Below are positions 1,868 through 38,850 of a stretch of DNA of 64,000 nt, piece by piece (position 1 is the first letter of the stretch; the number at the start of each line of letters is the position of its first letter). Made by a program: the position numbers and the translations under genes. A model generated the notes under the pieces. The model made no database searches and was not told where the DNA came from. It saw only the letters and a program-made list of their open reading frames with translations. Origin of the DNA: Minisyncoccota bacterium (GTDB lineage Bacteria; Patescibacteriota; Minisyncoccia; Phycocordibacterales; DATDSR01); assembly GCA_036517655.1 (NCBI GenBank), contig DATDVE010000016.1, positions 2,979 through 66,978 on the forward strand, given 5' to 3'.

Positions 1868-2392
1868 TTGGGCTTCATGAGTGACGAAAATGATATTGAT
1901 ATTGAGGAAAATGGCGATGAAAATGGAGAGAACTCTTGTTTAGAGAAACTCGGTAAAATAAAGGAAAAGTTAAAGGTTTGTGAGGCCGAAAAGGGGGACT
2001 ATCTTGATGGCTGGCAGAGGAGCAAAGCTGATTATGCAAATTTTAAGCGCGTAGTTTTAGAAGGAGAAAAAGATTTGGGGATCAGGGCGACTAGACGGAT
2101 AATTGAGGAACTTTTGCCGGTGCTAGAAAGTTTAGATCAAGCCCGCGCTCATACAAAGGATCTCGAGCCTATCGAGCGGCAGTTTGTTAAAATACTTGAG
2201 GCTAATGGGCTGGAAAGTTATGGTGAGGCGGGGGAGAACTTTGATCCTACTATTCACGAATCGGTTGGCATGAGCGAGGTTGCAGAAGAGGAAAACGATA
2301 ATATAATAGTAGAAATCGTTTCGAGAGGTTATAAGTTGGCAGGCAGGATTCTGAAACCCGCAAAAGTTAAGGTAGGCAAGTATAAAATATAA
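1868..2392 (+). CDS. grpE: nucleotide exchange factor GrpE
   Basis: 174 aa with a coiled-coil N-terminus and a GrpE-like C-terminal beta domain. Precedes dnaK-dnaJ. Candidate -35 TTGATT / -10 TATAAT at 1843-1866. Confidence 0.8.
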
Positions 2393-2397
2393 GGATC

Positions 2398-4260
2398 ATG
2401 AGTAAAATACTTGGCATAGATTTGGGCACAACTAACTCGGCAATGGCCGTGATTGAAGGCGGCGAGCCGAAGATTATTGAGAACTCTGAAGGTAATAGGA
2501 CAACGCCATCTGTTGTGGCTATTTCTAAAACTGGTGAAAGGTTAGTTGGCCTAGTTGCCAAGCGACAGTCTGTCACTAACCCCAGCAATACTATCTACGG
2601 AGTTAAACGCTTGATGGGCCATAAGTTCGAGGATGAGGAAATTGTAGAAGACGTTAAGTCTGTCGCTTTTAAGATCAAAAAAGACCCTTCGACAAGCTCA
2701 GGACAAGATGGAGGCGGTGTGGTTGTCGAGATGGCAAATAAGAATTACAGGCCAGAGGAAATCTCTGCCATGATTCTCTCTAAATTAAAAGCCGACGCTG
2801 AGGCTAAACTAGGCGGCAAGATCACAGAGGCGGTGATCACAGTTCCGGCATACTTTAGTGATGCACAGAGGAATGCAACCAAGGCAGCGGGTACAATTGC
2901 TGGGTTTGATGTAAAAAGGATTATCAATGAGCCAACGGCTGCGGCGCTGGCCTATGGTTTTAACAAACGCAAAGACGAGAAAATCGTTGTCTTTGATTTC
3001 GGCGGTGGCACATTTGATGTGTCAGTGCTCGAAGTGGGTGGCGACGTCATCGAAGTCAAATCAACTGACGGCGACTCGCACATGGGTGGCGAAGATATAG
3101 ATCGCGAAATTGTAGATTGGATTGCAAGTGAATTCAAAAAGGAGTCTGGCATAGACGTGCGCACAGACTCGCTTGCCCTTCAGAGATTGAAAGAAGCGGC
3201 CGAGAAAGCTAAACACGAGCTTTCTACCGCGCTTGAAACAGAAATCAACATACCTTTCATCACATCAGACGCCTCTGGGCCCAAGCATTTATTGCTCAAA
3301 ATGACTCGAGCAAAACTTGAGGGCTTGTGTGAGTCGTATATAAACAAATCAATCGAGATCACCAAGCGCGCGCTTGATGCATCGGGCTTTAAGATAAGTG
3401 ACATTGCAGAGGTTGTGCTTGTGGGCGGTCAGACTAGGATGCCGAAGATCCAGGAAGAGGTAAAAAAACTTTTCGGTGGCAAAGAACCAAATAGATCAAT
3501 TAATCCAGACGAGGTTGTAGCTATCGGCGCTGCGATACAGGCTGGTATTATGCAGGGTGATGTTAAGGACGTGCTCTTGCTTGACGTTACGCCCTTATCG
3601 CTTGGAATTGAAACTCTGGGGGGTGTGGCCACAAGATTAATAGAAAAGAATACAACTATACCCACGGCCCGAACACAAGTCTTCTCTACTGCCGCAGATA
3701 ATCAAACGTCTGTTGAGATACATGTTGTCCAGGGCGAGCGCGAGATGGCGGCAGATAATAAGACACTCGGCAGATTCACTCTAGAGGGCATTCCGCCGGC
3801 TCCGCGAGGCATGCCACAAGTTGAGGTAAGCTTCGACATAGACGCAAATGGCATCCTGCAAGTCAAGGCAAAAGATAAAACCTCTGGCAAAGAGCAATCT
3901 ATTAGGATAGAGGGTTCTACAGGCTTGTCTAAGGAGGAAATAGAGCGCATGAAGCGTGATGCGGAAGTGCATGCCGAAGAAGATAAGAAAAAGAAAGAAC
4001 TAATAGACACGCGCAACATGGCAGACGCGCTAATCGTGACAGCCGAACGCGCAGTTAAGGACGCGGGAGACAAAATTACACCCGAGCTTAAGACAACGAT
4101 AGAGGAGAAAATCAGTAACTTAAAAAAAGTAAAAGATACTGGTTCACAAGAAGATATTAAAAAGGTAAGTGATGAGTTGGGAGTGGAAATTCAGAAAATC
4201 GGACCCGCGATGGGTAATGACCAAACATCTCAAACTGATCAAACTAAACAAACACCTTGA
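2398..4260 (+). CDS. dnaK: molecular chaperone DnaK (Hsp70)
   Basis: 620 aa with Hsp70 signatures ([26 protein letters not shown]). Confidence 0.97.
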
Positions 4261-7264: not shown

Positions 7265-7565
7265 CTAGCCGAGTATATGTTGAAGCCGTTGATTCGTCTG
7301 GTAGAAGCTCCAAAAGCGGGCCAAGTAGCTTTTCATCCGGTTCAACATGAGGTCGTGTGTCTCCACTGTCATGCAGCCCTGAAAGGGTCTACTTTGAGTG
7401 TGGCTAAGAGTGACCAACGACCCTTCCGTGATGGGAGTGTGGAAAAAGAGCGAGACAACCCCACATGTCCGTACGACTTCACTAGCGACTTTGCCACAGA
7501 CTTATCGTCTTTTGAGCAGATAATGAGAACCCGTTTTGCCATGACCTAACCCTCCTTTGATTTGA
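7265..7565 (+). ncRNA. rnpB: probable RNase P RNA (bacterial type; boundaries approximate)
   Basis: GC-enriched, ORF-poor segment. CR-II-like TGAAAGGGTCT...GGCTAAGAGTGACC (7378-7415; cf. GGUGAAAGGGUG...GGUAAGAGCGCACC). CR-III-like AACCCCAC (7457-7464). P4 strands AAAAGCGGG (7312-7320) and CCCGTTTT (7529-7536) can pair. The called 90-aa ORF has no protein-like features. Confidence 0.5.
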
Positions 7566-7685
7566 ACGTGCTTCCAAGCTGGAAACTAACACAAGTAACA
7601 AGGATATGCAAAGAGAAAAAGTGATTTCAATTGATGTGCATTACTTGATACCGCATACCTGTTTGTTTTGTTATGATAAATAAGT

Positions 7686-8558
7686 ATGGCTCACATTGCA
7701 GATAATGACTCAACATTAAAATATGAGGTGAATACTACCCATAAAAAGGTCTTTAATCTTTTTTTTACTTCTATATTAAACAATCTTCCTGCGTCTGTAG
7801 TGCATCTCATCAAGAAATCTAATTACTCTGCTCATCATGTTATTGAGAATAAGACTAGTCACGAAGCGCTTGAAACACTCTATAGTTGCGGACACTCACA
7901 TCCATCGAGTAACCTTCTAAACAAACTCTTTAGATCTATTTGGTTTAATGTAGATAACTCGAAGGCAGTTAGAAACAGATTAAAGCTGGTTAAGAAGGAA
8001 CTTAAAGTCGCTTTTAGCTCAATAATAGATAGGGAAGAAAAAATAGAATTACTTAGCATAGCATCTGGATCGGCTCGGTCAGTAGTTGAGGCAATTAGTG
8101 AGGCAGGACTTACAGCTGAAAAAATAAGAGCATCCTTCTTAGACAAGAACCCCAACGCCCTAGATTACAGCAAAAGATTAGTGAGTAAATGTGGTTTAAA
8201 GAATTTTCACTTTCGCTGGTTCAACGACGTTGCTTCAAATTTCCCGGTATATTTCGCCAATGCTAAGCCCAACCTTGTAGAAATGGTTGGGTTACTGGAC
8301 TACTTCTCTTTTGATAAAACATTATCTTTATTAAAAGTTATTTATAACAACCTACCTAAAGGCGGAATTCTTATAACAGCGAATATCAGTGACAACCGAG
8401 AGCGTAAGTTTGTTACCAATATAGTTGGATGGCATATGATTTATAAAAACGCTGACGAGTTACGGTCGCTGGCAATATCAGCTGGTTTTAATCCAGATAA
8501 AATACGGGTGATTTATGAACCGCTTCGTATACACTGCGTCTTAATAGCTGAAAAATAA
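7686..8558 (+). CDS. class I SAM-dependent methyltransferase (putative)
   Basis: Motif I-like LLSIASGSARS and post-I acidic residue, LPKGGILI motif; 290 aa. Stop abuts the start of the histidine kinase. Confidence 0.45.
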   Translation: MAHIADNDSTLKYEVNTTHKKVFNLFFTSILNNLPASVVHLIKKSNYSAHHVIENKTSHEALETLYSCGHSHPSSNLLNKLFRSIWFNVDNSKAVRNRLKLVKKELKVAFSSIIDREEKIELLSIASGSARSVVEAISEAGLTAEKIRASFLDKNPNALDYSKRLVSKCGLKNFHFRWFNDVASNFPVYFANAKPNLVEMVGLLDYFSFDKTLSLLKVIYNNLPKGGILITANISDNRERKFVTNIVGWHMIYKNADELRSLAISAGFNPDKIRVIYEPLRIHCVLIAEK

Positions 8559-10169
8559 ATGTCTGACTGGCAAACAACGTCACTTTTCATAGTTTCCGGC
8601 CTTAACGCACTCTTTAGTCTAATTCTGATTAGAGAAGGCAAAAGCCGAGTAAACATAATTTTTTCATTGTTTGTACTAGCCGCTTCTGCCTGGGCGCTTG
8701 GCATTGGCTTGTTTAGAACAATCAATGACATAAATTATTCATTGTACATAGCTAATTTTTACTACGTTGCTGCGGCACTTATCCCATTGCTATTTTTGTA
8801 CTTTTCTCTTGTATTCTTGAATGATAAGAAGCGAATAGGTATTCTCTATTTGTGGCTTGGACTACCCATGATTGCTCTACTAGCGGGACTAGTAATCAAT
8901 CGAAATCTTATTCTTCTTTCTGTGTCCAGCCTTTCTGGCGTTAAAACGGCTACGATAAACCTAATTCCATATTCCATTTATGGCATTTTATTCGTACTTT
9001 ATGTGATTACCTCATTTTTTGTTTTGTTCAGATCGCTATCTCACGCACAGGAACGTGAACAAAAAATCCAGATAAGATTTGTTATCTATGGAACGATTAT
9101 CCCTTATATTTTGGGGATGGTGTTTAATCTGATTCTACCGTGGATAGGGAACTATCAACATATTTGGCTTGGACCTATTTTTTCAATAATGATGGTTGCA
9201 GCGGTTGGCTATGCAGTCGCAAACCACCATCTTTTCAATCTCAAAATTATCGCAACAGAGGTTACTGTTGTTGTCTTGTGGATATTCCTGTTGGTCCGGA
9301 CTCTTGTATCAAGCGGCGTGACTGACCAGATAATAAATGGGTCCACCTTCATTGCTTTAGTGATACTCGGGGTCCTTTTGATTCGGTCTGTCATTAAAGA
9401 AGTCAAAACGCGCGAAAGAATGGAGGCGCTTGCCAAGGAACTTGCTTCGGCCAACGAGCGGCTGACTGTCCTTGATCGTCAGAAATCTGAATTCTTGTCT
9501 ATTGCCTCGCACCAATTGCGTAGCCCGCTTACTGCCATTAAGGGCTATTCATCCATGATTCTTGAGGGCTCTTTTGGGGTGCCTGAGGCTAAGATGAAAG
9601 AGGCCATCGAGCGCATTTATTTATCAAGTGAGCGACTGGTTATTATCATCGAGGACTTCCTGAATGTGTCGCGTATCGAGCAAGGCCGGATGCAGTATGA
9701 TTTCGCAACAGTTAATCTAGAAGAACTTGTGACGGGAGTGACCCAGGAACTAGAACCAAATATCAAGCGGGCCAGATTAGATATCTCTTTTAGCAAAAAG
9801 ACCGCCGGTCCATTCTATATTAATGCTGATTTCGGCAAGATTCGCCAGGTTATAACTAACATCATAGATAACGCTGTCAAATACACACCCGAAGGTGGAA
9901 TTACAGTGAGCCTATCGAAGGATGAAGAGACACGCAAGATCCTGCTTGCCATATCTGACACAGGCATCGGCATCGCCCGTGAGGTGCTGCCCATGCTCTT
10001 CCAGAAATTTACGAGAGCGAAGGGCGCAAGCGAGGTCAACACCCAAGGCACTGGTCTGGGCCTCTATGTAGTCAAAGAACTTATGAAGGCCCACAAAGGC
10101 AGCGTCTGGGTGGATAGCCCAGGCGAAGGCAAAGGCTCTACCTTTTACCTCGAGTTTATGGCAGAATAG
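8559..10169 (+). CDS. sensor histidine kinase with multi-TM N-terminal domain (no response regulator adjacent)
   Basis: About 7 predicted TM helices, then a coiled coil, HisKA H-box (SEFLSIASHQLRSPLTAIKGY) and HATPase_c N/G boxes (DNAVKYT, GTGLGL). Confidence 0.85.
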   Translation: MSDWQTTSLFIVSGLNALFSLILIREGKSRVNIIFSLFVLAASAWALGIGLFRTINDINYSLYIANFYYVAAALIPLLFLYFSLVFLNDKKRIGILYLWLGLPMIALLAGLVINRNLILLSVSSLSGVKTATINLIPYSIYGILFVLYVITSFFVLFRSLSHAQEREQKIQIRFVIYGTIIPYILGMVFNLILPWIGNYQHIWLGPIFSIMMVAAVGYAVANHHLFNLKIIATEVTVVVLWIFLLVRTLVSSGVTDQIINGSTFIALVILGVLLIRSVIKEVKTRERMEALAKELASANERLTVLDRQKSEFLSIASHQLRSPLTAIKGYSSMILEGSFGVPEAKMKEAIERIYLSSERLVIIIEDFLNVSRIEQGRMQYDFATVNLEELVTGVTQELEPNIKRARLDISFSKKTAGPFYINADFGKIRQVITNIIDNAVKYTPEGGITVSLSKDEETRKILLAISDTGIGIAREVLPMLFQKFTRAKGASEVNTQGTGLGLYVVKELMKAHKGSVWVDSPGEGKGSTFYLEFMAE

Positions 10170-10176
10170 TTGCAAT

Positions 10177-12948
10177 ATGAAAAGTCGAGGTGCAATCCTC
10201 GTTCTGGCCATCCTTCTAGTTCCACTATTTGCGTCTGCTAAAAGTCCAAAATTGGCGGGTTTTGAGCGGGACAAGGGCAAGTCAATCACTGTTTCAGAAC
10301 CACTAGGCTGGCCGGCTTCTATCACTGCATCATCTCATGTTAAGGGCACTGTCACGTCTCTGCCGGGGATGACTGTCGTCCGACTTTTGGGCTACGAACC
10401 CTGGTGGAAAATCTGGGGCGATTTGTCCGCTACAACTACTGTCACAATTTCTGGTCTGCCCAAGAATAGCACACTACACATATACACCAGAGGTTATAGA
10501 GAGCACAAAGAAATTAATAGCGATGCGCGCGGAGCAGTTACACTCGATTTTGATTCTGACTCTGGTGCGCAATTTATTATCAAGAGCAACCCATCGACTA
10601 AACACATAGCACTTGATCCATTGCTTGGCCCACCGGGTGGGGATTGTAGCGAGATCGGCACATGGACTGCTATAACACGCACATGCAAGCTCAACCAAGA
10701 CGTATTCGAGACTATTTCCATCGAGGATGCGGGCATTACACTTGATGGCAACAATTTTTCTGTTCGGGGTGCTGACAGTGGCGACGGTATATATACAGAT
10801 GAGAGTGACGTGCGAATCACAAATATAGAAGTGCACCGCTTTGATCGCGGTATTGTCTATTCTGACTCGCTATTTACACTAGCTAGTGGCGGGCAAATAG
10901 ATGGCACAACTCTTGCCGATAATATTCTAAATATTATGGACGAGGGTGTCTCTGATTTAAAGATAACAGATAACGACATTGTAGTTGCGGGTACTGGTAT
11001 ATCACTCGTGGATCAGTTCGATAGCTTCCCAACAGATGGAATTGTCATAGTGCGCAACAGCTTCAAGCAGAATACTAATAATGACCTATTCAACAGCGGC
11101 ACATCATTTGTACTCAATACGGCGACAGACAGGGGTAACTGGTGGGCCAAGAATACGAACTGCACTCAAGATCCCGCTAATCCCGATCATTGCACGAACA
11201 TGTACAACGAAGGCGACGGCACAGACAATGCTCCTTGGGCCTGCGAAAACGCATGGCGAAGTAACGTGAACTGTCCAACTACTCCATTGCCAAACGAAAA
11301 TGGAATATGGGGAGAGGTAACATCCTTTTCCACTGGAACAACAACGTATTACAAGGATTCACCGTTAACCATACCTGTGAAAGTGCTACCAAATGGTTGG
11401 GTGCTCAAGGTTCTAGGCAAGCAGACAGAGAAATGGGAAGTTCAAGATGTCACAGATGATAGTACAGGCTGGGTAAAATCCTCTGATATGAGCAGTGATT
11501 CATCGCTTGACCAAGAGCGAGGAGAAAGGGCCGAAGTTACCAAAACTGATAAAGCCGCTAGAGTTGAAGTAATTGATGAGGCAATTTCACACTTCTACAA
11601 CAATAATTCTGTGAGTGAGTCACTCTATAGCAGTAATTCACTTGGAAGAATGGGGGTACGATCAAATATATCACAGCTCAAATCTTTAGGTTTTGTGAAG
11701 GCCCTTATATACGCTACCGCATCGTGGGAATCAGGAGGAAAGGATTTTAACAATGAACTGGTGACATACGATTACGGACATGGGATAAAGCAGATAACCT
11801 TCCAAGCCTGGTTTAATGAACCTCTAAATTACCAAATGAATACCTGGGATAACAGGGGCCTTGCAAGCAATATCATCATATCTGGATGCGAGAGCGTAAA
11901 AAGCGACAACTACAAAGACTGCTATGTAAATACACAGACTCAAAATAAGTTATTAAAACCGTATAAGCAATTCCAGGATAATCAAGCCAATCCTACTTAC
12001 AAAATGTACTCGAACTCCAGCCAGTCTATTTATGCTAACGTTAAGGATGGAATGGTCCTATTGGCGGGGGCTATGACACGGGCGAATCGTAACATTGGTA
12101 ATCCGGGTATTAACTGGGCCTCTGGATTTAGTTTCCCCTATACGATATCAGACAACGAAATGAAGCAGATGTCTAGCTTAAGAGATTACAACGCTGGCCC
12201 TGGAAGTAGGTGCACACCCGTGCTTAATCCGTATAATCAGTATTACCTAAAAAATGTCGGCCTCAAGTTATCCACAATAAATTCAATCTTCCCTGAACTT
12301 AATTATACTGACACTGACCATTTTGTTGAGAAACTCTCTTTTGCTTCCACAGAACAGGACAGGATTGAGGCTTGTAGCCCTGTGTACGTTCAGGTACTAG
12401 ATTCAGCCAATCGCTTGGTAGGCTATAACGGGACTGCTGTTGTGCACCAAATTCCCAGAGTCACATATGATTACAATGAATATAAAGTTGCTCACGTTTT
12501 GCTCCCAAATGACGACTACAGCTATAGAGCCTTGGGCTATGAAACAGGAACATACTCTCTGTATATTGATAGATTTTCTGAAGAAAAAGGAGATGCTAGT
12601 TTTATTGCAACTGAAATCCCAACATCTCGTGGTGAGATACACGAGTACAACCCAGATTGGAAAGCTTTAGCCACTGGCAAAAGGGGGATGTTAGTCAAAG
12701 TCGACAATGATGGCGATGGAGTATTCGACTATGAATTCGTGGTTGGAAGTGCGCTTACGTCTGATAAGTTTATGAAATTTTCCAAAGAAAACACTGGAAA
12801 AGTGCTTGTCTGTCATATTCCTCCAGGTAATCCACAAAATGTTCGTACAATTTCGATTAGCAATTCTGCGCTAGAGACGCACCTTAATCACGGAGACAAG
12901 GAAGGGGAGTGTCTGTCTGCTACAAAAAGTAAAAATAGAAAGAAGTGA
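10177..12948 (+). CDS. large secreted protein: signal peptide + right-handed beta-helix repeats + SH3b-like segment + SLT lytic transglycosylase-like domain
   Basis: Signal peptide MKSRGAILVLAILLVPLFASA. PbH1-like repeats (ITLDGNNFSV, ITNIEVHRFDRGIV, ITDNDIVVAG). GWVLKV...GWVKSSD motif. SLT-like motifs ES...YGHGIKQI and DYNAGPG. Confidence 0.6.
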   Translation: MKSRGAILVLAILLVPLFASAKSPKLAGFERDKGKSITVSEPLGWPASITASSHVKGTVTSLPGMTVVRLLGYEPWWKIWGDLSATTTVTISGLPKNSTLHIYTRGYREHKEINSDARGAVTLDFDSDSGAQFIIKSNPSTKHIALDPLLGPPGGDCSEIGTWTAITRTCKLNQDVFETISIEDAGITLDGNNFSVRGADSGDGIYTDESDVRITNIEVHRFDRGIVYSDSLFTLASGGQIDGTTLADNILNIMDEGVSDLKITDNDIVVAGTGISLVDQFDSFPTDGIVIVRNSFKQNTNNDLFNSGTSFVLNTATDRGNWWAKNTNCTQDPANPDHCTNMYNEGDGTDNAPWACENAWRSNVNCPTTPLPNENGIWGEVTSFSTGTTTYYKDSPLTIPVKVLPNGWVLKVLGKQTEKWEVQDVTDDSTGWVKSSDMSSDSSLDQERGERAEVTKTDKAARVEVIDEAISHFYNNNSVSESLYSSNSLGRMGVRSNISQLKSLGFVKALIYATASWESGGKDFNNELVTYDYGHGIKQITFQAWFNEPLNYQMNTWDNRGLASNIIISGCESVKSDNYKDCYVNTQTQNKLLKPYKQFQDNQANPTYKMYSNSSQSIYANVKDGMVLLAGAMTRANRNIGNPGINWASGFSFPYTISDNEMKQMSSLRDYNAGPGSRCTPVLNPYNQYYLKNVGLKLSTINSIFPELNYTDTDHFVEKLSFASTEQDRIEACSPVYVQVLDSANRLVGYNGTAVVHQIPRVTYDYNEYKVAHVLLPNDDYSYRALGYETGTYSLYIDRFSEEKGDASFIATEIPTSRGEIHEYNPDWKALATGKRGMLVKVDNDGDGVFDYEFVVGSALTSDKFMKFSKENTGKVLVCHIPPGNPQNVRTISISNSALETHLNHGDKEGECLSATKSKNRKK

Positions 12949-13490
12949 AACAGAAATTTGTAATAATAGCTTTCGTAATTTTGGCAATCGGAATAATTTA
13001 TAAATTTAGATTAGGAGAATTTCGTAATGATATAAAAATAGTAGATCAAACCGCTATATCGTTTACGCTTTTTGACGATAAAAGCAACAAGCATATTGTT
13101 AATTTAGATTCATACATTAGTAGTCCAGATGAAACATTGGGAGAGATTGCGGGTAAGATCGAGTTAATAGTTGCTGATGACTACAGAAATAGAGTTTATG
13201 TTGTTTATAGTAATTCAGGGCTGCCAGGCCGGAACGGTCTTACAAACAATATTCTTAGTTATGATTTATTTACCAAAGAACTGCAACCTCTTCTATACAA
13301 CGAAAGGGAAATCTATGTTAATAATCCATCGGATCTTCGCCTTACCCAAGATTTCCATTATCTCAAGCTTAATTACGGTTTATCAGATGGTGCCTGCAGT
13401 CTCATCACTGGCACTTTGACATGGGATCTTAATATTGCTGGTTCTTCTGCAAAGGACGATCGGAGAATTGAGAAATTAAGTGATTGCTAA
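12945..13490 (+). CDS. hypothetical membrane-anchored protein
   Basis: N-terminal TM (FVIIAFVILAIGIIY), 181 aa. ATGA overlap with the upstream gene. Conserved ~45-nt motif directly downstream. Confidence 0.5.
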   Translation: MKQKFVIIAFVILAIGIIYKFRLGEFRNDIKIVDQTAISFTLFDDKSNKHIVNLDSYISSPDETLGEIAGKIELIVADDYRNRVYVVYSNSGLPGRNGLTNNILSYDLFTKELQPLLYNEREIYVNNPSDLRLTQDFHYLKLNYGLSDGACSLITGTLTWDLNIAGSSAKDDRRIEKLSDC

Positions 13491-34496: not shown

Positions 34497-34999
34497 ATAA
34501 TTTGGGCAATATTAGGATTAACAAGATTTTTCCAATCACTCGACTTCATAGCAATCGAGAATGCGCGATCTCCGGCGTTGAAAATTATCTCATCATTCAT
34601 CAAAACCCCTGGGTCAGCATAAGTTTGAAGGTTGAAGAGATTTCCGAAAGGCGGCACTCCCCCAACTTGCACCCCTCCTGTTATTTCGCTCACCTCTTGT
34701 TCTGTAGCAAATCTAATTTCCTTAATCTCAAGTTCCTTCTTAACCTTCGCTTCATTGAATCTCATGTCGCCAGGAACAACTAACATCACAAACTTTCTTT
34801 CCCTTTTTTCACTAGTACCTAGTACCTGATACCTAACACCTGTTATTAGCGCCTTTGCCCCTTGGTGGAGTGAGTACTCCGGCCGTAGCTTAGCCGCCTC
34901 CTCGCTAGTCCGCACTGGCGCGTGCTCAAAGGATTTGTAAGTAGTCGCAGCTCCATCAAGTATCTCCCTGATCTTCCCAACCACTGGATGATAGTTCAT
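34493..34999 (-). CDS. YbaK/ProX-type aminoacyl-tRNA deacylase (free-standing editing domain)
   Basis: 168 aa; YbaK-like GGV motif (ITGGVQVGGVPPFG). Confidence 0.55.
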   Translation of the reverse strand: MNYHPVVGKIREILDGAATTYKSFEHAPVRTSEEAAKLRPEYSLHQGAKALITGVRYQVLGTSEKRERKFVMLVVPGDMRFNEAKVKKELEIKEIRFATEQEVSEITGGVQVGGVPPFGNLFNLQTYADPGVLMNDEIIFNAGDRAFSIAMKSSDWKNLVNPNIAQII

Positions 35000-35235
35000 T
35001 GCTTACTTGCATTATTAAAATCTTCTTCATGCACTTCCGCCAAGTCAAGCGCAGACAGAAGTGTCCCATGAGCCAATTCTCGATGAAGCGGCACAATAGT
35101 AGTTATGGTACGAATACCACTTTTCTTTTGCAACTTCATGTGACTGCCCTTCTGTGACACTGCAGTAAATCCGAAATGCTTGCACAATATCTTTATAGTA
35201 GATTTACCCGAAAAAACTTTAGGCATGAACCTCAA
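34996..35235 (-). CDS. hicA: HicA family type II toxin (mRNA interferase)
   Basis: 79 aa with the HicA pattern (KILCKHFGF...QKGSHMKLQK...VPLHRELAHGTL). Overlaps the upstream hicB. Confidence 0.7.
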   Translation of the reverse strand: MRFMPKVFSGKSTIKILCKHFGFTAVSQKGSHMKLQKKSGIRTITTIVPLHRELAHGTLLSALDLAEVHEEDFNNASKQ

Positions 35236-35440
35236 TGGATGTCACCATCGGAATCTCGTGTGAGAGATATTTCCTCTGCCTAGGAGATCCTTCAAGATAG
35301 AGCTCGACTGCTTCGCGCAAATTGTATTTAGCTTCCTCAAGAGTCTTGCCCTGACTTGCAACGCCGAGCTCAAGAGACCTGGCGACAAACCACTTCCCTT
35401 CCTTGGCAATAATAGCTGTAAACTTATACGTCATGATCAT
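35219..35440 (-). CDS. hicB: HicB family antitoxin (UPF0150 fold)
   Basis: 73 aa; FTAIIAKEGKWFVARSLELGVASQGKTLEEAKYNLREAVELYLE matches small HicB antitoxins. Confidence 0.65.
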   Translation of the reverse strand: MIMTYKFTAIIAKEGKWFVARSLELGVASQGKTLEEAKYNLREAVELYLEGSPRQRKYLSHEIPMVTSIEVHA

Positions 35441-35608
35441 ATTGTATCAAGACATTGCCCACATGACAATATTACGCTATATTTCCTTTGTAGGCTCTAT
35501 CGTCTCCTACTTCGCTCAAGCTTGCGCATGAGCTTCGCAGGACAAGTAGTGGTTATTGTTACCATGGCTTGCACTTCGAAGCTCCGGTGTAATCCGGAGC
35601 GTAGTAGT

Positions 35609-35680
35609 GGCTCTATCGTCTAGGGGTTAGGACATAAGCTTCTCAAGCTTAGAACCCGGGTTCGAATCCCGGTAGAGTCA
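35609..35680 (+). tRNA. tRNA-Glu (anticodon CUC)
   Basis: Cloverleaf: acceptor GGCTCTA/TAGAGTC (one G-U pair), D-arm GTCT/GGAC, anticodon stem TAAGC/GCTTA with loop TTCTCAA, T-arm CCGGG-TTCGAAT-CCCGG. No encoded CCA. Confidence 0.85.
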
Positions 35681-35991
35681 TTTCAATCAGTGTGCTAGAA
35701 TGGTTGCGGGATAGTGAGAGTCGGTATTTATTGACGCAAGTTGATAACGGGGGTTGTGAATTAAGTCCGTCATCCGCCCAGGCTCGATTTTATCTAGCCT
35801 TCGACAGACATTGTCTGTCATCGTGCGGTGGATTTATCCGCAAGGATAGAGGGTAGCGGTGAAAAGCAACAACTGGCTTACGGGTCTACCGAGAGTGCTA
35901 TCCCAACAAAGTGCTTCCCTCCTGGGGAGCTTTTTGTATATAAATGTAGAAGACCGCCGAACCCTTGCTTTGGGTTACGGCGGCCTCGTCG

Positions 35992-36306
35992 CTAGTCGTA
36001 GCAGTCGCAGTTGATGTCACTTGGTGCCCCACAGCGCAGGCAGTGCGTGTACTCGCCATCGTCGTTCCTCGTGAACCTATCGGGAGCATCGCTGTGGTCT
36101 ATCTTAGCAAGCTCCTGCCAGAGCTGTCCCTCCTCTTGGGGTGAAGGTCTGCCCGAGAGAATCGTGGCGGTGTTGAAGTCGCCCTCTTCAGGACAACCCC
36201 CACCACTCAAGCTCTTGAGGTGGCAAGAGTAGCAGGTAGTTGCATCTTCCTTATAAGTCTCGAATGACTGGTTACAAACTGCGCAAGTTTTCGTGAACAT
36301 GGTCAT
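35992..36306 (-). CDS. Cys-rich zinc-ribbon protein (hypothetical)
   Basis: 104 aa with CxxC...CxxC near the N-terminus and CxxC...CxC at the C-terminus. Strong hairpin terminator at 35952-35990. GC content elevated. Confidence 0.45.
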   Translation of the reverse strand: MTMFTKTCAVCNQSFETYKEDATTCYSCHLKSLSGGGCPEEGDFNTATILSGRPSPQEEGQLWQELAKIDHSDAPDRFTRNDDGEYTHCLRCGAPSDINCDCYD

Positions 36307-36447
36307 CTCCTTTCGCTGGGTTGATTACCAGAGAGAGGAGTCCCTACCGCTTTTCCGCCTTAGGCGAAGGGCAAAGGTAGAAGGACCAAGCTTGACCCTG
36401 ATAGCCCAAACAGGTCAAGCAAAATACTACTTATATTATACACCCCT

Positions 36448-36476
36448 ATTGACATTTGTCAAGGGCGGTGCTATAC
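36448..36476 (+). promoter_or_regulatory. sigma70-like promoter TTGACA-N17-TATACT with a 14-bp palindrome (TTGACATTTGTCAA) over the -35; probable operator
   Basis: Consensus -35 (36448-36453) and -10 (36471-36476), 17-nt spacer. RBS GGAGGTG at 36489-36495, then TTG start at 36504. Confidence 0.6.
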
Positions 36477-36503
36477 TCTCTGTCAGACTGGAGGTGAAAA
36501 CCT

Positions 36504-36791
36504 TTGACACGCGAACAGCTCGCAAAGAGGGTTCACTGGCCCAAAATCATCTGGACAGCGGGCATAGTGAACGTCACGGCGATGTTGCCCCAACTATGGC
36601 AACTGCTAAAGACTCACGAAACCAAGGGGCTGTCGGTGGAAATGTTCTGCATCTACCTCGGCATCCAAATCTGCTTCTGCTTGGAGGGCTACTTCAAGCG
36701 GAGCAAGATGCTCTTCTGGTGTCTCGGAGCTTCGGCAGTCGTCAGCTCGGTCATCATCGCTCTCATCGTCTACTACCGCCACTTCGCATAG
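36504..36791 (+). CDS. SemiSWEET/PQ-loop family small transporter
   Basis: 95 aa, 3 TM. PQ motif in TM1 (MLPQLWQLLKTHETKGLS), typical of bacterial SemiSWEETs. TTG start. Confidence 0.6.
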   Translation: MTREQLAKRVHWPKIIWTAGIVNVTAMLPQLWQLLKTHETKGLSVEMFCIYLGIQICFCLEGYFKRSKMLFWCLGASAVVSSVIIALIVYYRHFA

Positions 36792-36807
36792 TGGCAAGGA
36801 GGAGTAA

Positions 36808-37099
36808 AGTGGCGAAGCTCACAATCAGGTTCTATTTCGAGAACGAGGACTCACTCAACGATCCCGACGTCCAGGCGACTGTGACGGATATCACCAAGAG
36901 TCTGCCAAATCGAGGGGTGGAGATTCAGAGGCTGAACATCGAGGAGGGTGAGGGCAAGCGACGATTCGAACTCTTCCGCAAAGACCGCCTGCCCACTACC
37001 TGCCCCGCTGTGGAAATCGGCGACGGCTTCTTGTTTCCGCTCGTCTCTCTCGTCAACATCCTGGCCGGTCTCCGTGTAGCCCCTTCACTCGGTGAGTGA
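36808..37099 (+). CDS. thioredoxin-fold-like small protein (hypothetical)
   Basis: 97 aa, GTG start 6 nt after AGGAGG. Pattern resembles small thioredoxin-like proteins (...TTCPAVEIGDG...). Hairpin terminator at 37130-37170. Confidence 0.4.
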
Positions 37100-37273
37100 G
37101 ATGCCACAGAGCAAAGCACATAACCATGGCCCGCCCTAGTCTTCGGACGAACGGCGGGCTTCAACATTTTTACGCAACCTCTATCATTCCTGCAAAATCT
37201 GGTATATAAATATAGCCATGGTGGGCCCTTATTCTAGTTCCAACATCGTCCACTAGGGCTCGTAAAATGCTCT

Positions 37274-37522
37274 CTATAGGACGTTTATCAGAAGTAGGAT
37301 TGCTGCAATTATCACGACGACTAGCCCGAATTTCTGATCTATAGGGAGATATGATTTTATATAATCTTTACTAAGGACAGTCAGAGGCATCTTGCCAGTC
37401 CGTTTATAAGTCCGCAAATAGGAATAAATTACCCATACAAGTCCTAGTGCAACGGCAGCCAACAGGATAAGTGTCATCATTTTAGTTGCTGAGTTAATAA
37501 TAATTACATCTTCCTCCTCCAC
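37274..37522 (-). CDS. hypothetical small membrane protein (2 TM)
   Basis: 82 aa with two hydrophobic helices; overlaps the 3' end of the Mur ligase gene. Confidence 0.4.
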   Translation of the reverse strand: MEEEDVIIINSATKMMTLILLAAVALGLVWVIYSYLRTYKRTGKMPLTVLSKDYIKSYLPIDQKFGLVVVIIAAILLLINVL

Positions 37523-38850
37523 TCCTTCTCTTGTCTTACAAGTAGTTCGCTCGCCTTGGTTGGATCTTCCAGGAGCTGCTCTGTTGCTCTCTCTAGTCTC
37601 ACTGATTGCGAGGCTTTTAGCAACACCATGTCACCAGATAAGACGAAACTTGATAGAAATTTGCCAGCCTCTTGTGAATTTCCGAATTCATGCACGCTAC
37701 CTTTATCAAACCCGTCTTCTATTGCGCTCTCGCCAATCCACTTTGCCTTCTCCCCCACACAGACAAGCACGTCTGCCACGCCTCTTATCCAAGTTCCAAC
37801 TTTACGATGCTCGCCCTCACTATACTCGCCCAATTCGAGCATGTCGCCCAGCACAGCAACCTTGCGTGGCTGTGGCTGACTGTCAGCCATAGGGCTGACA
37901 GTCAGCTCTAGCTCATGGAGAGTTTCGAGGGCTAGTTTGACGGCTGATGGGGACGAATTATATGTGTCGTCTATTATGGTTGAACCATTTTTGCCAGGGA
38001 GGATTCGCAGGCGGCCGGGAGTAAATTTATGTCTTCCTAGTGCATCTGATATTGTGACGACATTAATCCCTAGGTTTGCGCCGACGGCAAATGCCGCAAG
38101 TGCCGCGTAGGCATGACCCTTGCCGAGCACTCCACACAATCTGACGGGCACGCTCTTGCCAGCATAATCTACTCTAAGGTTTATGCCCTTCGGCTTCTTG
38201 CCCCGAGCGGAGTCAAGTGGGTCATCATAACTTGTGTGCAAATTATCTCCCCGAATATTTGCATCGCTTGCGAATCCGTATGAGATTACGCGCGCACGGG
38301 TAGCCTCACGCATCTCCCAGGCGCGGGCGTCATCGCGGTTAACTATCGCTGTGCCATCTTCTGGCAGTGCGCGTAAGAGCTCACTTTTTTCACTTACGAG
38401 CGCCTCTATGTCCCGAAAGAATTCTACATGCACCGGCACTTCACTGCCAATCCCCGTTATCACTCCCAATTTTGGTCGCACCCACGAAGAAAGTGTTTTA
38501 ATGTCACCCGGCTTATCTGCACCCAGTTCCAGGACGAGAAATTTGTATTTCTCGCCCGGAAAACCCAAGCGCCAAATCCCAAAGCCCAAGTTGAGCAGCC
38601 AGCCCATGGGCGAACTCCAGGCGGTTTTGAGACCTAAGATAGTTAGGGGGACGCCGAATTCGCTGTTTAGGCTCTTTTCATTCTTCTTCGCAGAGAAAGT
38701 GCTGGAAACAACTGTGTAGAGCAAATCTTTCGCGCTAGTTTTGCCTACAGAACCTGTCACGGCAATTACTTTTGGCTTTGTGCGTGCAAGTACAAGCCTT
38801 GCTTCTAGTACTAGGGCTGCAATAACAATTTTTTTTATCAGTGCTCTCAT
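37504..38850 (-). CDS. murF: Mur ligase, MurF-like (UDP-MurNAc-tripeptide--D-Ala-D-Ala ligase), N-terminal domain apparently absent
   Basis: GxxGKT/S P-loop at residues ~30-37 (VTGSVGKTSAKD). C-terminal DDTYNSSP resembles the MurF DDSYNANP motif. Sits after ftsI in the dcw cluster. Confidence 0.6.
   Translation of the reverse strand: MRALIKKIVIAALVLEARLVLARTKPKVIAVTGSVGKTSAKDLLYTVVSSTFSAKKNEKSLNSEFGVPLTILGLKTAWSSPMGWLLNLGFGIWRLGFPGEKYKFLVLELGADKPGDIKTLSSWVRPKLGVITGIGSEVPVHVEFFRDIEALVSEKSELLRALPEDGTAIVNRDDARAWEMREATRARVISYGFASDANIRGDNLHTSYDDPLDSARGKKPKGINLRVDYAGKSVPVRLCGVLGKGHAYAALAAFAVGANLGINVVTISDALGRHKFTPGRLRILPGKNGSTIIDDTYNSSPSAVKLALETLHELELTVSPMADSQPQPRKVAVLGDMLELGEYSEGEHRKVGTWIRGVADVLVCVGEKAKWIGESAIEDGFDKGSVHEFGNSQEAGKFLSSFVLSGDMVLLKASQSVRLERATEQLLEDPTKASELLVRQEKEWRRKM

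Follow-up and report, generated by a model that had tools for sequence, protein, structure and literature searches.

A probable recombination and insertion hot spot between murF and tRNA-Glu(CUC) in a Minisyncoccota genome, holding several unrelated accessory pieces

Islands integrated at tRNA genes are among the described systems closest to the locus reported here. Under the Islander definition, such an island is bracketed by a tRNA gene and a displaced fragment of the cognate gene, carries a tyrosine integrase and is at least 2 kb long (PMC4383910). Here we analysed a 64-kb window from an uncultured groundwater bacterium of the Minisyncoccota (contig DATDVE010000016.1; all coordinates are positions within this window), and in particular the junction between murF, a gene of the division and cell wall (dcw) segment, and a tRNA-Glu(CUC) gene. 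An initial annotation had viewed this region as the remnant of an integrated element, citing as hallmarks a repeat of the tRNA 5' end, a HicB-HicA toxin-antitoxin pair and a shift in composition. Most of its sequence observations held, and the GC-rich block did prove to be foreign-looking, accessory and adjacent to the tRNA, but the three hallmarks do not belong to one element. We consider it likely that the murF/tRNA-Glu(CUC) junction is a hot spot of recombination and insertion that holds at least four unrelated accessory pieces in this genome, and not a single decayed element. A variable islet at a tRNA-flanked hot spot is a known kind of locus, of which this one is a further example with a few unusual details.

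For comparison we used six metagenome contigs, L089 to L094, which were retrieved in a scan with a 25-mer of the tRNA-Glu(CUC) and were treated as genus-level relatives; L093, L091 and L101 represent one locus. The coding regions of L089 to L094 are 66-78% identical to those of the window. A class-level set came from a murF-based scan of species-representative genomes, in which the top murF matches were all Paceibacteria (Vogel-, Taylor-, Lloyd-, Campbell- and Yanofskybacteria) and the best match reached only 44% identity, so that synteny in this set is informative at the class level only. Additional metagenome contigs bear the cysteine-rich (Cys-rich) gene of the islet (L084, L085-87 and L088), and L099 carries both its Cys-rich and its PQ-loop arm. 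Searches for homologues of the insert and of the trailer described below covered 102 loci, or 1.4 Mb of fetched sequence. To the right of the tRNA in the window lie the Cys-rich gene, the PQ-loop gene, orf96, a gene for an 82-aa membrane protein, murF, ftsI, ftsL, rsmH and mraZ; leftward, on the minus strand, lie a hicB-like gene and hicA, and beyond them genes for a YbaK-type editing domain, NUDIX and RmuC.

The tRNA-Glu(CUC) gene (35609-35680, plus strand) was recognised by ARAGORN and by Rfam (RF00005, 62.7 bits), in agreement with the initial annotation, and it was the only Rfam match both in the window and in the relatives. Its sequence is identical across L089 to L094 save at position 73, and similarity between the window and these relatives stops exactly at tRNA position 72/73. 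Of about 48 patescibacterial loci, 35 have a tRNA-Glu(CUC) after murF, as a rule no more than a few hundred bases away; 29 of these tRNAs share the strand of murF and 6 are inverted. On this gene order, murF followed by tRNA-Glu is the ancestral synteny in Paceibacteria and the tRNA the normal end of the dcw segment; the earlier view that the region interrupts the dcw neighbourhood was mistaken. The tRNA is co-directional with murF in L094 and inverted in L090. Among contigs with an identical tRNA, the tRNA-Glu, together with its downstream element where one is present, faces opposite ways relative to murF (window 35609-35680 versus L094 1525-1597), and we therefore conclude that local inversion has occurred repeatedly.

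The first accessory piece lies upstream of the tRNA. A left direct repeat at 35493-35505 (plus strand) is an exact 13-nt copy of tRNA-Glu positions 1-13, GGCTCTATCGTCT, and begins 116 nt before the tRNA; the chance expectation in the whole window is 0.07 matches. The repeat had been noticed before, one base away from this position. Between the copy and the tRNA lies a hairpin-forming segment of 103 nt (35506-35608, plus strand) with imperfect inverted ends, CCTACTTCGCTC and GAGCGTAGTAGT. Alignment with L089, which lacks the 13-nt copy, revealed an exact empty site: there the promoter runs directly into the tRNA, and the window has 116 bp more, namely the 103-nt segment and one 13-mer. The insert thus shares with MITEs (miniature inverted-repeat transposable elements) its short non-coding nature, its inverted ends, an exact flanking duplication of 13 bp and an empty site in a related genome. 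A 13-bp duplication is at the long end of the range for bacterial insertion sequence (IS) families (IS4, IS481). The sole other homologue of the hairpin in the fetched loci is in L015, a member of the Yanofskybacteria whose murF is 42% identical; there the insert occupies the same position, with 12 nt of L015's own tRNA 5' end duplicated at its flanks. Apart from that site, neither the 102 loci nor the 64-kb window, which is a fraction of the genome, contains a further copy. We propose that an insertion of 116 bp, comprising the hairpin and the duplicated tRNA positions 1-13, entered between the tRNA and its promoter, probably recently, and that it resembles in behaviour a small, non-autonomous insertion element that duplicates its target site. 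The 13-nt repeat is real and meaningful, but it marks this tiny insertion, and it encloses neither HicBA nor the GC-rich islet.

A promoter scan placed back-to-back divergent promoters just upstream (35441-35483, both strands). The tRNA-Glu promoter is on the plus strand (TTGCCC-17-TATATT, 35455-35483) and the hicBA promoter on the minus strand (TTGTCA-17-TACAAT, 35469 to 35441), and their -35 boxes together form TTGCCCACATGACAA (35455-35469). L089 keeps both hexamer pairs, and there about 10 nt separate the -10 box from the tRNA itself, which follows. Since the hairpin of the window lies downstream of this conserved tRNA promoter, it should be transcribed as a precursor leader, which would be long and structured and would have to be removed by RNase P. 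On the other side of the tRNA a structured non-coding 3' trailer (35681-35912, plus strand) runs to a canonical intrinsic terminator of the tRNA-Glu transcript (35913-35935, plus strand; GCTTCCCTCCTGGGGAGC then TTTTTGT). The stretch 35681-35991 holds only spurious open reading frames (ORFs) of at most 55 aa; the earlier remark that about 300 nt without an ORF follow the tRNA was correct, with no credible ORF before 35992. The trailer gave no Rfam match at E values up to 10 and no homologue in the 102 loci. It folds into a closed multi-branch structure with a minimum free energy of -90.6 kcal/mol, terminator included.

In relatives this place is taken by a different, tRNA-end-matching element of about 130-150 nt. 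Its first part complements the acceptor 3' strand of the tRNA; next come a covarying CUGC-loop hairpin and the complement of the 3' half of the T-arm, then a core of two hairpins, and lastly the final 15-21 nt of the tRNA as a direct copy. Analysis with RNAalifold revealed compensatory changes in 16 of 24 pairs. We located the element at L090 8317-8466, L093 3649-3799, L094 1621-1741, L001 12706-12836, L007 12836-12967, L008 9504-9649, L021 14643-14792 and 1808-1946, L013 2982-3127 and L089 1-99. In L089 it lies 2.7 kb from tRNA-Glu, with variable genes between. The covariance model also located it at tRNA-Phe in L021 and at tRNA-Pro in L013, and its termini there match those tRNAs. Neither the covariance model nor nhmmer found this 3' element in the window, where the lineage-specific structured trailer of 230 nt with its own terminator would have replaced it; the element itself has no match in Rfam. 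Two irregular cases were seen beside these. In L013 (2950-3190), after tRNA-Pro(GGG), a direct repeat made of the last 15 nt of the tRNA and the 56 nt behind them flanks the element core on either side, which resembles a partial tandem duplication or a tandem insertion. In L007 (13084-13330), upstream of tRNA-Glu, there is a degenerate copy of the tRNA 5' half through the anticodon loop, and the stretch of about 190 nt that follows it weakly matches the model of the 3' element and contains an antisense T-arm.

Could the flanks of the tRNA be functional RNA instead, kept by selection as elements that regulate or process the tRNA-Glu precursor, or as stable small RNAs released from it? Alternative pairing with the acceptor 3' strand would then be the role of the 13-nt copy, and in the minimum-energy fold the copy does pair with the tRNA 3' end. 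Both flanks lie between a promoter-like site and a terminator, and both fold far better than shuffled sequences (35493-35621, repeats included, -55 kcal/mol, z = -5.7; trailer, z = -3.2). The tRNA strand is favoured as well: the hairpin reaches -50.8 kcal/mol on the plus and -41.7 on the minus strand, with 4 versus 1 G-U pairs, and the trailer has 11 G-U pairs on the plus strand versus 3 on the minus strand. Conservation of the hairpin core in the distant L015 and the covarying element after the tRNA in relatives point the same way. Against these stand the lack of the 5' hairpin in the closest relatives, L089 to L094, the lack of any homologue of the trailer in the loci searched and an exact 13-nt duplication facing an exact empty site, which is the signature of a recent DNA insertion. 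We therefore regard selection on a functional RNA as rather improbable, and retain the insertion of a small DNA element as the better account of the 5' flank.

The tRNA-end-matching elements are the only part of this work that might prove new, and their clearest examples are in the relatives and not in the window. Our literature search found no description of such tRNA-flank elements in Patescibacteria. Only tentatively, and at less than even confidence, do we propose that the 116-bp insertion belongs to an undescribed class of small structured elements of Paceibacteria, situated at the ends of tRNA genes and carrying copies and complements of the host tRNA end. A 5' type, seen in the window and in L015, may consist of a copy of tRNA positions 1-13, a hairpin and the tRNA; a 3' type, at tRNA-Glu, -Phe and -Pro in relatives, may consist of the tRNA, the complement of its 3' end split by the CUGC-loop hairpin, a core and a direct copy of the 3' end. 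Such elements could be miniature site-specific mobile elements that mark the insertion places of variable gene islets, or alternatively tRNA-precursor RNAs with a function of their own.

The second body of accessory DNA is the GC-rich islet on the 3' side of the tRNA (about 35950-37263). Profiles of composition bore out the block pointed to by the initial annotation: at 54.0%, the GC content of 35950-37199 is unmatched by any of 503 sliding windows of the same size (mean 47.2%, standard deviation 3.0), and its tetranucleotide distance is in the top 4%. A few other 1-kb bins in the window do reach 52% GC. The GC content at third codon positions (GC3) is 0.66-0.78 in the three islet genes versus 0.38-0.57 in 13 neighbours, hicA and hicB included. 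The parts of the window that deviate most in composition are elsewhere, at about 7400-9500 and 11900-13400 (GC 0.37-0.39, largest tetranucleotide distance); they depart further than the islet, toward AT-rich.

Comparison with the relatives, which had been suggested as a check, revealed that the block is absent in some and differently filled in others. L094 is without the islet. L090 runs from murF through about 230 nt, an inverted tRNA and 320 nt to NUDIX and RmuC, without the islet, the 82-aa gene, HicBA or YbaK. In L089 the DNA on the 3' side of the tRNA is wholly different from that of the window. At the place of the islet L093 carries the 87-nt segment that borders the islet toward murF, and with it a Zn-ribbon gene of 144 aa unrelated to that of the window, the PQ gene with 82% identity, an IS481-family transposase and another small gene. 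The transposase, a DDE enzyme (2211-3092, minus strand; rve 1e-12, rve_3 4e-14, LZ_Tnp_IS481), lies between the PQ gene and tRNA-Glu and takes the place of the Cys-rich arm, starting just beyond the -10 box of the PQ gene; tblastn with it found no IS481 remnants in the window.

Pieces of the islet recur on other contexts' contigs in various combinations. In L084 the Cys-rich coding sequence (CDS) is 99% identical to that of the window at the nucleotide level (100% in amino acids), its leader 97% and the promoter 94%, whereas the PQ CDS is only 84% identical; this contig is without orf96, and the cassettes lie about 20 nt from a tRNA-Val(CAC) that the PQ arm faces, which is the polarity opposite to that in the window. 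In L085-87, where the cassettes sit between MOSC-domain and SecA genes, both boundary hairpins are 91-92% identical, the promoter is kept, the leader is 94% and the Cys-rich gene 84% identical, and PQ-orf96 is replaced by a 60-aa gene and a gene for a 204-aa membrane protein. The Cys-rich gene of L088 adjoins ychF. In L099 identity is 88% over the stretch from the Cys-rich gene to the end of the ribosome-binding site that follows the PQ stop codon; two unrelated small genes come next. Across L084, L099 and L093, the slot occupied by orf96 in the window is empty or filled with unrelated small genes. Conservation extends through the PQ stop and the next ribosome-binding site, GGCAAGGAGG (window 36792-36810; L099 582-600; L093 1857-1875), and then gives way to small ORFs that differ from contig to contig; we take this to be a fixed junction for the swapping of cargo. 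Pieces of the islet are 82-99% identical to other contigs versus 66-78% for core genes to the genus-level relatives, and these higher identities together with the GC3 shift indicate cassette exchange between lineages and loci.

The limits of these exchanges are sharp, since homology of the cassettes among contigs ends at two boundary hairpins in every case. The left one is a terminator-like hairpin of the Cys-rich gene (35952-35985, minus strand), 92% identical in L085 and 86% in L088, with similarity stopping beyond it. The right one (37129-37175, plus strand), also terminator-like, has the form GCCCGCC...GGCGGGC and ends in a T-rich tail; over 47 nt it is 91% identical in L085. The hairpin itself (37129-37159) is common to the PQ gene and orf96, and a related hairpin follows the PQ gene in L084. 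Each gene had been credited with a strong hairpin terminator of its own; we found only these two terminator-like hairpins for two transcription units, and neither passes a strict terminator scan. Beyond the right hairpin lies the 87-nt edge segment (37177-37263), which is unstructured (z about 0) and 96.5% identical in L093/L101, where the adjacent murF is only 66-72% identical, and which is absent from the islet-free L090 and L094. The segment occurs only in genomes that bear the islet and may serve as a boundary or as a site of recombination. It also contains ATCGTC-CAC-TAGGG, which resembles tRNA-Glu positions 8-18. A 14-nt direct repeat, GTATATAAAT[G/A]TAG, brackets the block at 35936 and 37202 and was considered as a target duplication; we rejected it, since the left copy is the U-rich tail of the Cys-rich gene terminator, the right copy is 27 nt beyond the homology of the module, neither copy recurs in other contexts, and such two-copy repeats are common by chance (16 families in 6 kb). 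Searches of phages, plasmids and viral contigs gave no match to the islet, the hairpin or the 87-nt segment.

From these comparisons the islet would be a mosaic, assembled from small cassettes that can be exchanged. One is a Zn-ribbon arm with its terminator, CDS, promoter and a conserved untranslated region (UTR) of 120 nt, and another is a PQ-loop arm; downstream of the PQ gene comes a variable slot, which orf96 occupies in this genome, and the 87-nt segment forms the edge. Such cassettes would move between lineages and loci by recombination, possibly aided by IS elements, and not by a tRNA-specific integrase. The islet is probably expressed as two divergent transcription units from back-to-back promoters of the sigma-70 type. 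The promoter scan detected this divergent pair at 36435-36477 (both strands), and it is kept in L084, L085 and L099. On the plus strand it recovered the TTGACA-17-TATACT promoter that had been noted earlier (36449-36477, 11 of 12 consensus matches), with its -35 box inside a 14-bp palindrome, TTGACATTTGTCAA (36449-36462). The palindrome additionally contains the -35 box of a perfect minus-strand promoter, TTGACA-16-TATAAT (36462 to 36435, 12 of 12 consensus matches), which faces the Cys-rich gene, so that it amounts to two -35 hexamers on opposite strands, 2 bp apart. The adjoining hexamers would thus create the palindrome.

We also considered an operator role for the palindrome, in which a dimeric repressor, possibly the Zn-ribbon protein itself, would bind it and control the Zn-ribbon and PQ-loop units together. 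Only the 2 central bases depart from perfect dyad symmetry, the dyad overlaps the two -35 boxes, and L084, L085 and L099 conserve it strictly; the Zn-ribbon protein is strongly constrained, as its complete amino-acid identity in L084 attests. We nevertheless judge the operator to be an unlikely candidate: two consensus -35 hexamers on opposite strands explain the dyad fully, the same back-to-back design recurs at the hicBA/tRNA promoters (35455-35469) with a similar one in L093, and the Zn-ribbon protein matches no DNA-binding family.

The proteins of the islet are small. The Cys-rich gene (35992-36306, minus strand) is present as described previously and encodes a putative Zn-ribbon protein of 104 aa with a CxxC-13-CxxC motif at the N-terminus and CxxC-7-CxC at the C-terminus. 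It matched no family in Pfam, NCBIfam or PADLOC, only 3 homologue clusters were found among 5.8 billion proteins, and its AlphaFold model (predicted local distance difference test, pLDDT, 40) is too poor for a fold search. The 5' UTR of this gene (36307-36428, minus strand), about 120 nt long, has a fold with z = -2.5 and no Rfam match; conservation of the leader is 94-97% (L084, L085) versus 84% for the CDS in L085, and it is a candidate cis-regulatory RNA. The second gene (36504-36791, plus strand) encodes a PQ-loop membrane protein of 95 aa that passes the threshold for Pfam PQ-loop (PF04193, 24.1 bits; cut-off 22). It had been called a SemiSWEET transporter. The PQ-loop assignment holds, and solved SemiSWEETs align with the whole protein at E = 0.006-0.07 (PDB 4qnd, 0.006), but SemiSWEET family models match only weakly (NCBIfam SemiSWEET_2 at 1e-6 but with 28.7 bits against a cut-off of 80, SemiSWEET_3 likewise well below its cut-off, and MtN3_slv at 0.02), and SemiSWEET-like is a fair description. 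Its 18 homologue clusters occur in unrelated contexts of the Candidate Phyla Radiation (CPR).

The third gene, orf96 (36809-37099, plus strand), has a GTG start and the conserved ribosome-binding site, and is predicted to be co-transcribed with the PQ gene, 17 nt away. It encodes an ORFan of 96 aa with a coding-like period-3 GC pattern (0.62/0.39/0.71). A thioredoxin fold had been attributed to it, for which we found no support: the protein has no match in Pfam, NCBIfam or the PDB and no CxxC, its AlphaFold model (pLDDT 42) is too poor for a fold search, and HMMER over 1.8 billion cluster representatives returned only the same locus and a repeat-rich SH3 protein, which we judged to be spurious as a homologue. 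No PADLOC defence-system model matched. The likely product of the islet would be a small-solute (SemiSWEET-like) transporter, with small proteins without an assigned role.

The HicB-HicA pair on the other side of the tRNA was confirmed, as a clear HicA toxin domain with an adjacent antitoxin gene. HicA (34996-35235, minus strand, 79 aa) matches Pfam HicA_toxin (PF07927, 1.3e-10, 41.7 bits; cut-off 27) and a toxin family in PHROG (9e-6), and its gene has a native GC3 of 0.39. The HicB-like antitoxin gene (35219-35440, minus strand, 73 aa) overlaps hicA by 17 nt and matches DUF7387 (4e-7), UPF0150 (2.5e-4), a HicB-like family in PHROG (1.4e-4) and, below its cut-off, HicB_lk_antitox (0.004). L089 has the same genes at the same place, with amino-acid identities of 71% for HicB, 72% for HicA and 65% for YbaK. 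Native composition and backbone-like divergence in L089 indicate that HicBA is not part of the GC-rich islet; the HicBA-YbaK block on the 5' side of the tRNA, common to L089, would be older and independent. L089 keeps HicBA and YbaK without the repeat and the hairpin, an outcome that the initial annotation had itself named as refuting its reading. Traces of an integrase, whose fragments had been named as something to look for, were likewise missing: a six-frame Pfam scan of 35440-37300 and scans of the called ORFs revealed no fragment of an integrase or transposase and no recombinase domain. Absence from related genomes and atypical composition are as expected of an Islander-type island, but the GC-rich block is about 1.3 kb long and the repeat-bounded insert 116 bp, the sole tRNA fragment (35493-35505) brackets 103 nt, and no displaced tRNA 3' fragment lies anywhere in the 64-kb window. 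That one element (an island, a prophage or an integrative element), brought in at tRNA-Glu by a tyrosine integrase, has since decayed and left the 13-nt repeat as attachment-site scar, HicBA as addiction module and the GC-rich genes as cargo, is thus very unlikely: for all that the locus adjoins a tRNA with a tRNA-derived direct repeat, includes a toxin-antitoxin pair and a compositional shift, has an islet absent from L090 and L094 and breaks from its relatives exactly at tRNA position 72/73, and that tRNA 3' fragments follow tRNA-Glu in other Paceibacteria, in L089 across 2.7 kb of variable genes, the repeat pair spans 103 nt only and on the opposite side of the tRNA from the islet, L089 has HicBA without the repeat, HicBA is of native composition, six frames hold no integrase remnant, the window holds no tRNA 3' fragment, the cassettes occur elsewhere in both orientations with independent histories, and the Islander filters for integrase, length and configuration all fail.

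Several points nevertheless weigh against a hot spot filled by separate insertions and exchanges. No transposase, integrase or recombinase was found in the window that would explain any of the movements. The hairpin is single-copy in all sequence searched, unlike a prolific MITE. That a distant lineage carries it at the same tRNA position would be explained equally well by transposition, by site-specific recombination or by an ancient functional leader that was lost through deletion between the repeats. The comparison contigs are mostly short metagenome fragments (0.8-5 kb) without assigned taxonomy, so that what appears as a different context could in part be rearrangement in close relatives and not transfer. 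Any function given to the three islet proteins is putative.

Features outside these pieces complete the neighbourhood. The gene for the 82-aa protein with two transmembrane segments (37274-37522, minus strand; GC 0.39) overlaps the end of murF and is lineage-specific; tblastn of the fetched loci matched only the same organism's own contigs. Inside murF, at 37875-37906, are two adjoining perfect 14-nt inverted repeats, GCTGACTGTCAGCC and GGCTGACAGTCAGC.

For annotation, the lesson is that a repeat derived from a tRNA, a toxin-antitoxin pair and a shift in GC may lie near each other without forming one element; here they would have three separate histories. The locus documents how a streamlined CPR genome may diversify without visible integrases: at a hot spot flanked by a tRNA, it would exchange kilobase-scale cassettes of tiny genes that bring their own promoters and terminators. 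The window and L089 also provide a clean before-and-after pair for a hairpin insertion specific to the tRNA 5' end. If the tRNA-end-matching elements of the relatives do form a coherent family, they would offer a new handle on mobile DNA or on tRNA-linked RNAs in Patescibacteria.

Set beside known systems, the locus resembles tRNA-integrated islands of the Islander type in lying next to a tRNA, in its tRNA-derived repeat, its atypical composition, its varying content in relatives and the nearby toxin-antitoxin pair. It differs in that a 5' tRNA fragment encloses 103 bp without an integrase, no displaced 3' fragment accompanies the islet on the 3' side, and the islet, at 1.3 kb, is below 2 kb and composed of parts with separate histories that occur in either orientation and beside other genes. 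The hairpin insert is like a MITE in being non-coding and 103 bp long, with imperfect inverted ends, an exact target duplication and an empty site in a relative; here, however, there is one detectable copy, and the same tRNA position is occupied in a distant lineage, suggesting site specificity. With SemiSWEET and PQ-loop transporters the PQ protein shares its length of 95 aa, a predicted three-helix layout, the PQ motif (LPQLWQ) and end-to-end alignment with solved structures, but it falls far under the curated NCBIfam cut-offs and its genomic contexts are inconsistent. The toxin-antitoxin pair is like type II HicAB modules in its clear HicA domain, in a short HicB-like gene that lies upstream of hicA and overlaps it, and in having its own promoter, whereas the HicB of the window is minimal and without a recognisable DNA-binding domain. 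By analogy only, the islet recalls the cassette arrays of integrons, in which short single-gene units are likewise swapped at fixed junctions; the islet, however, has no IntI integrase and no attC or attI sites, and its cassettes carry their own promoters and terminators.

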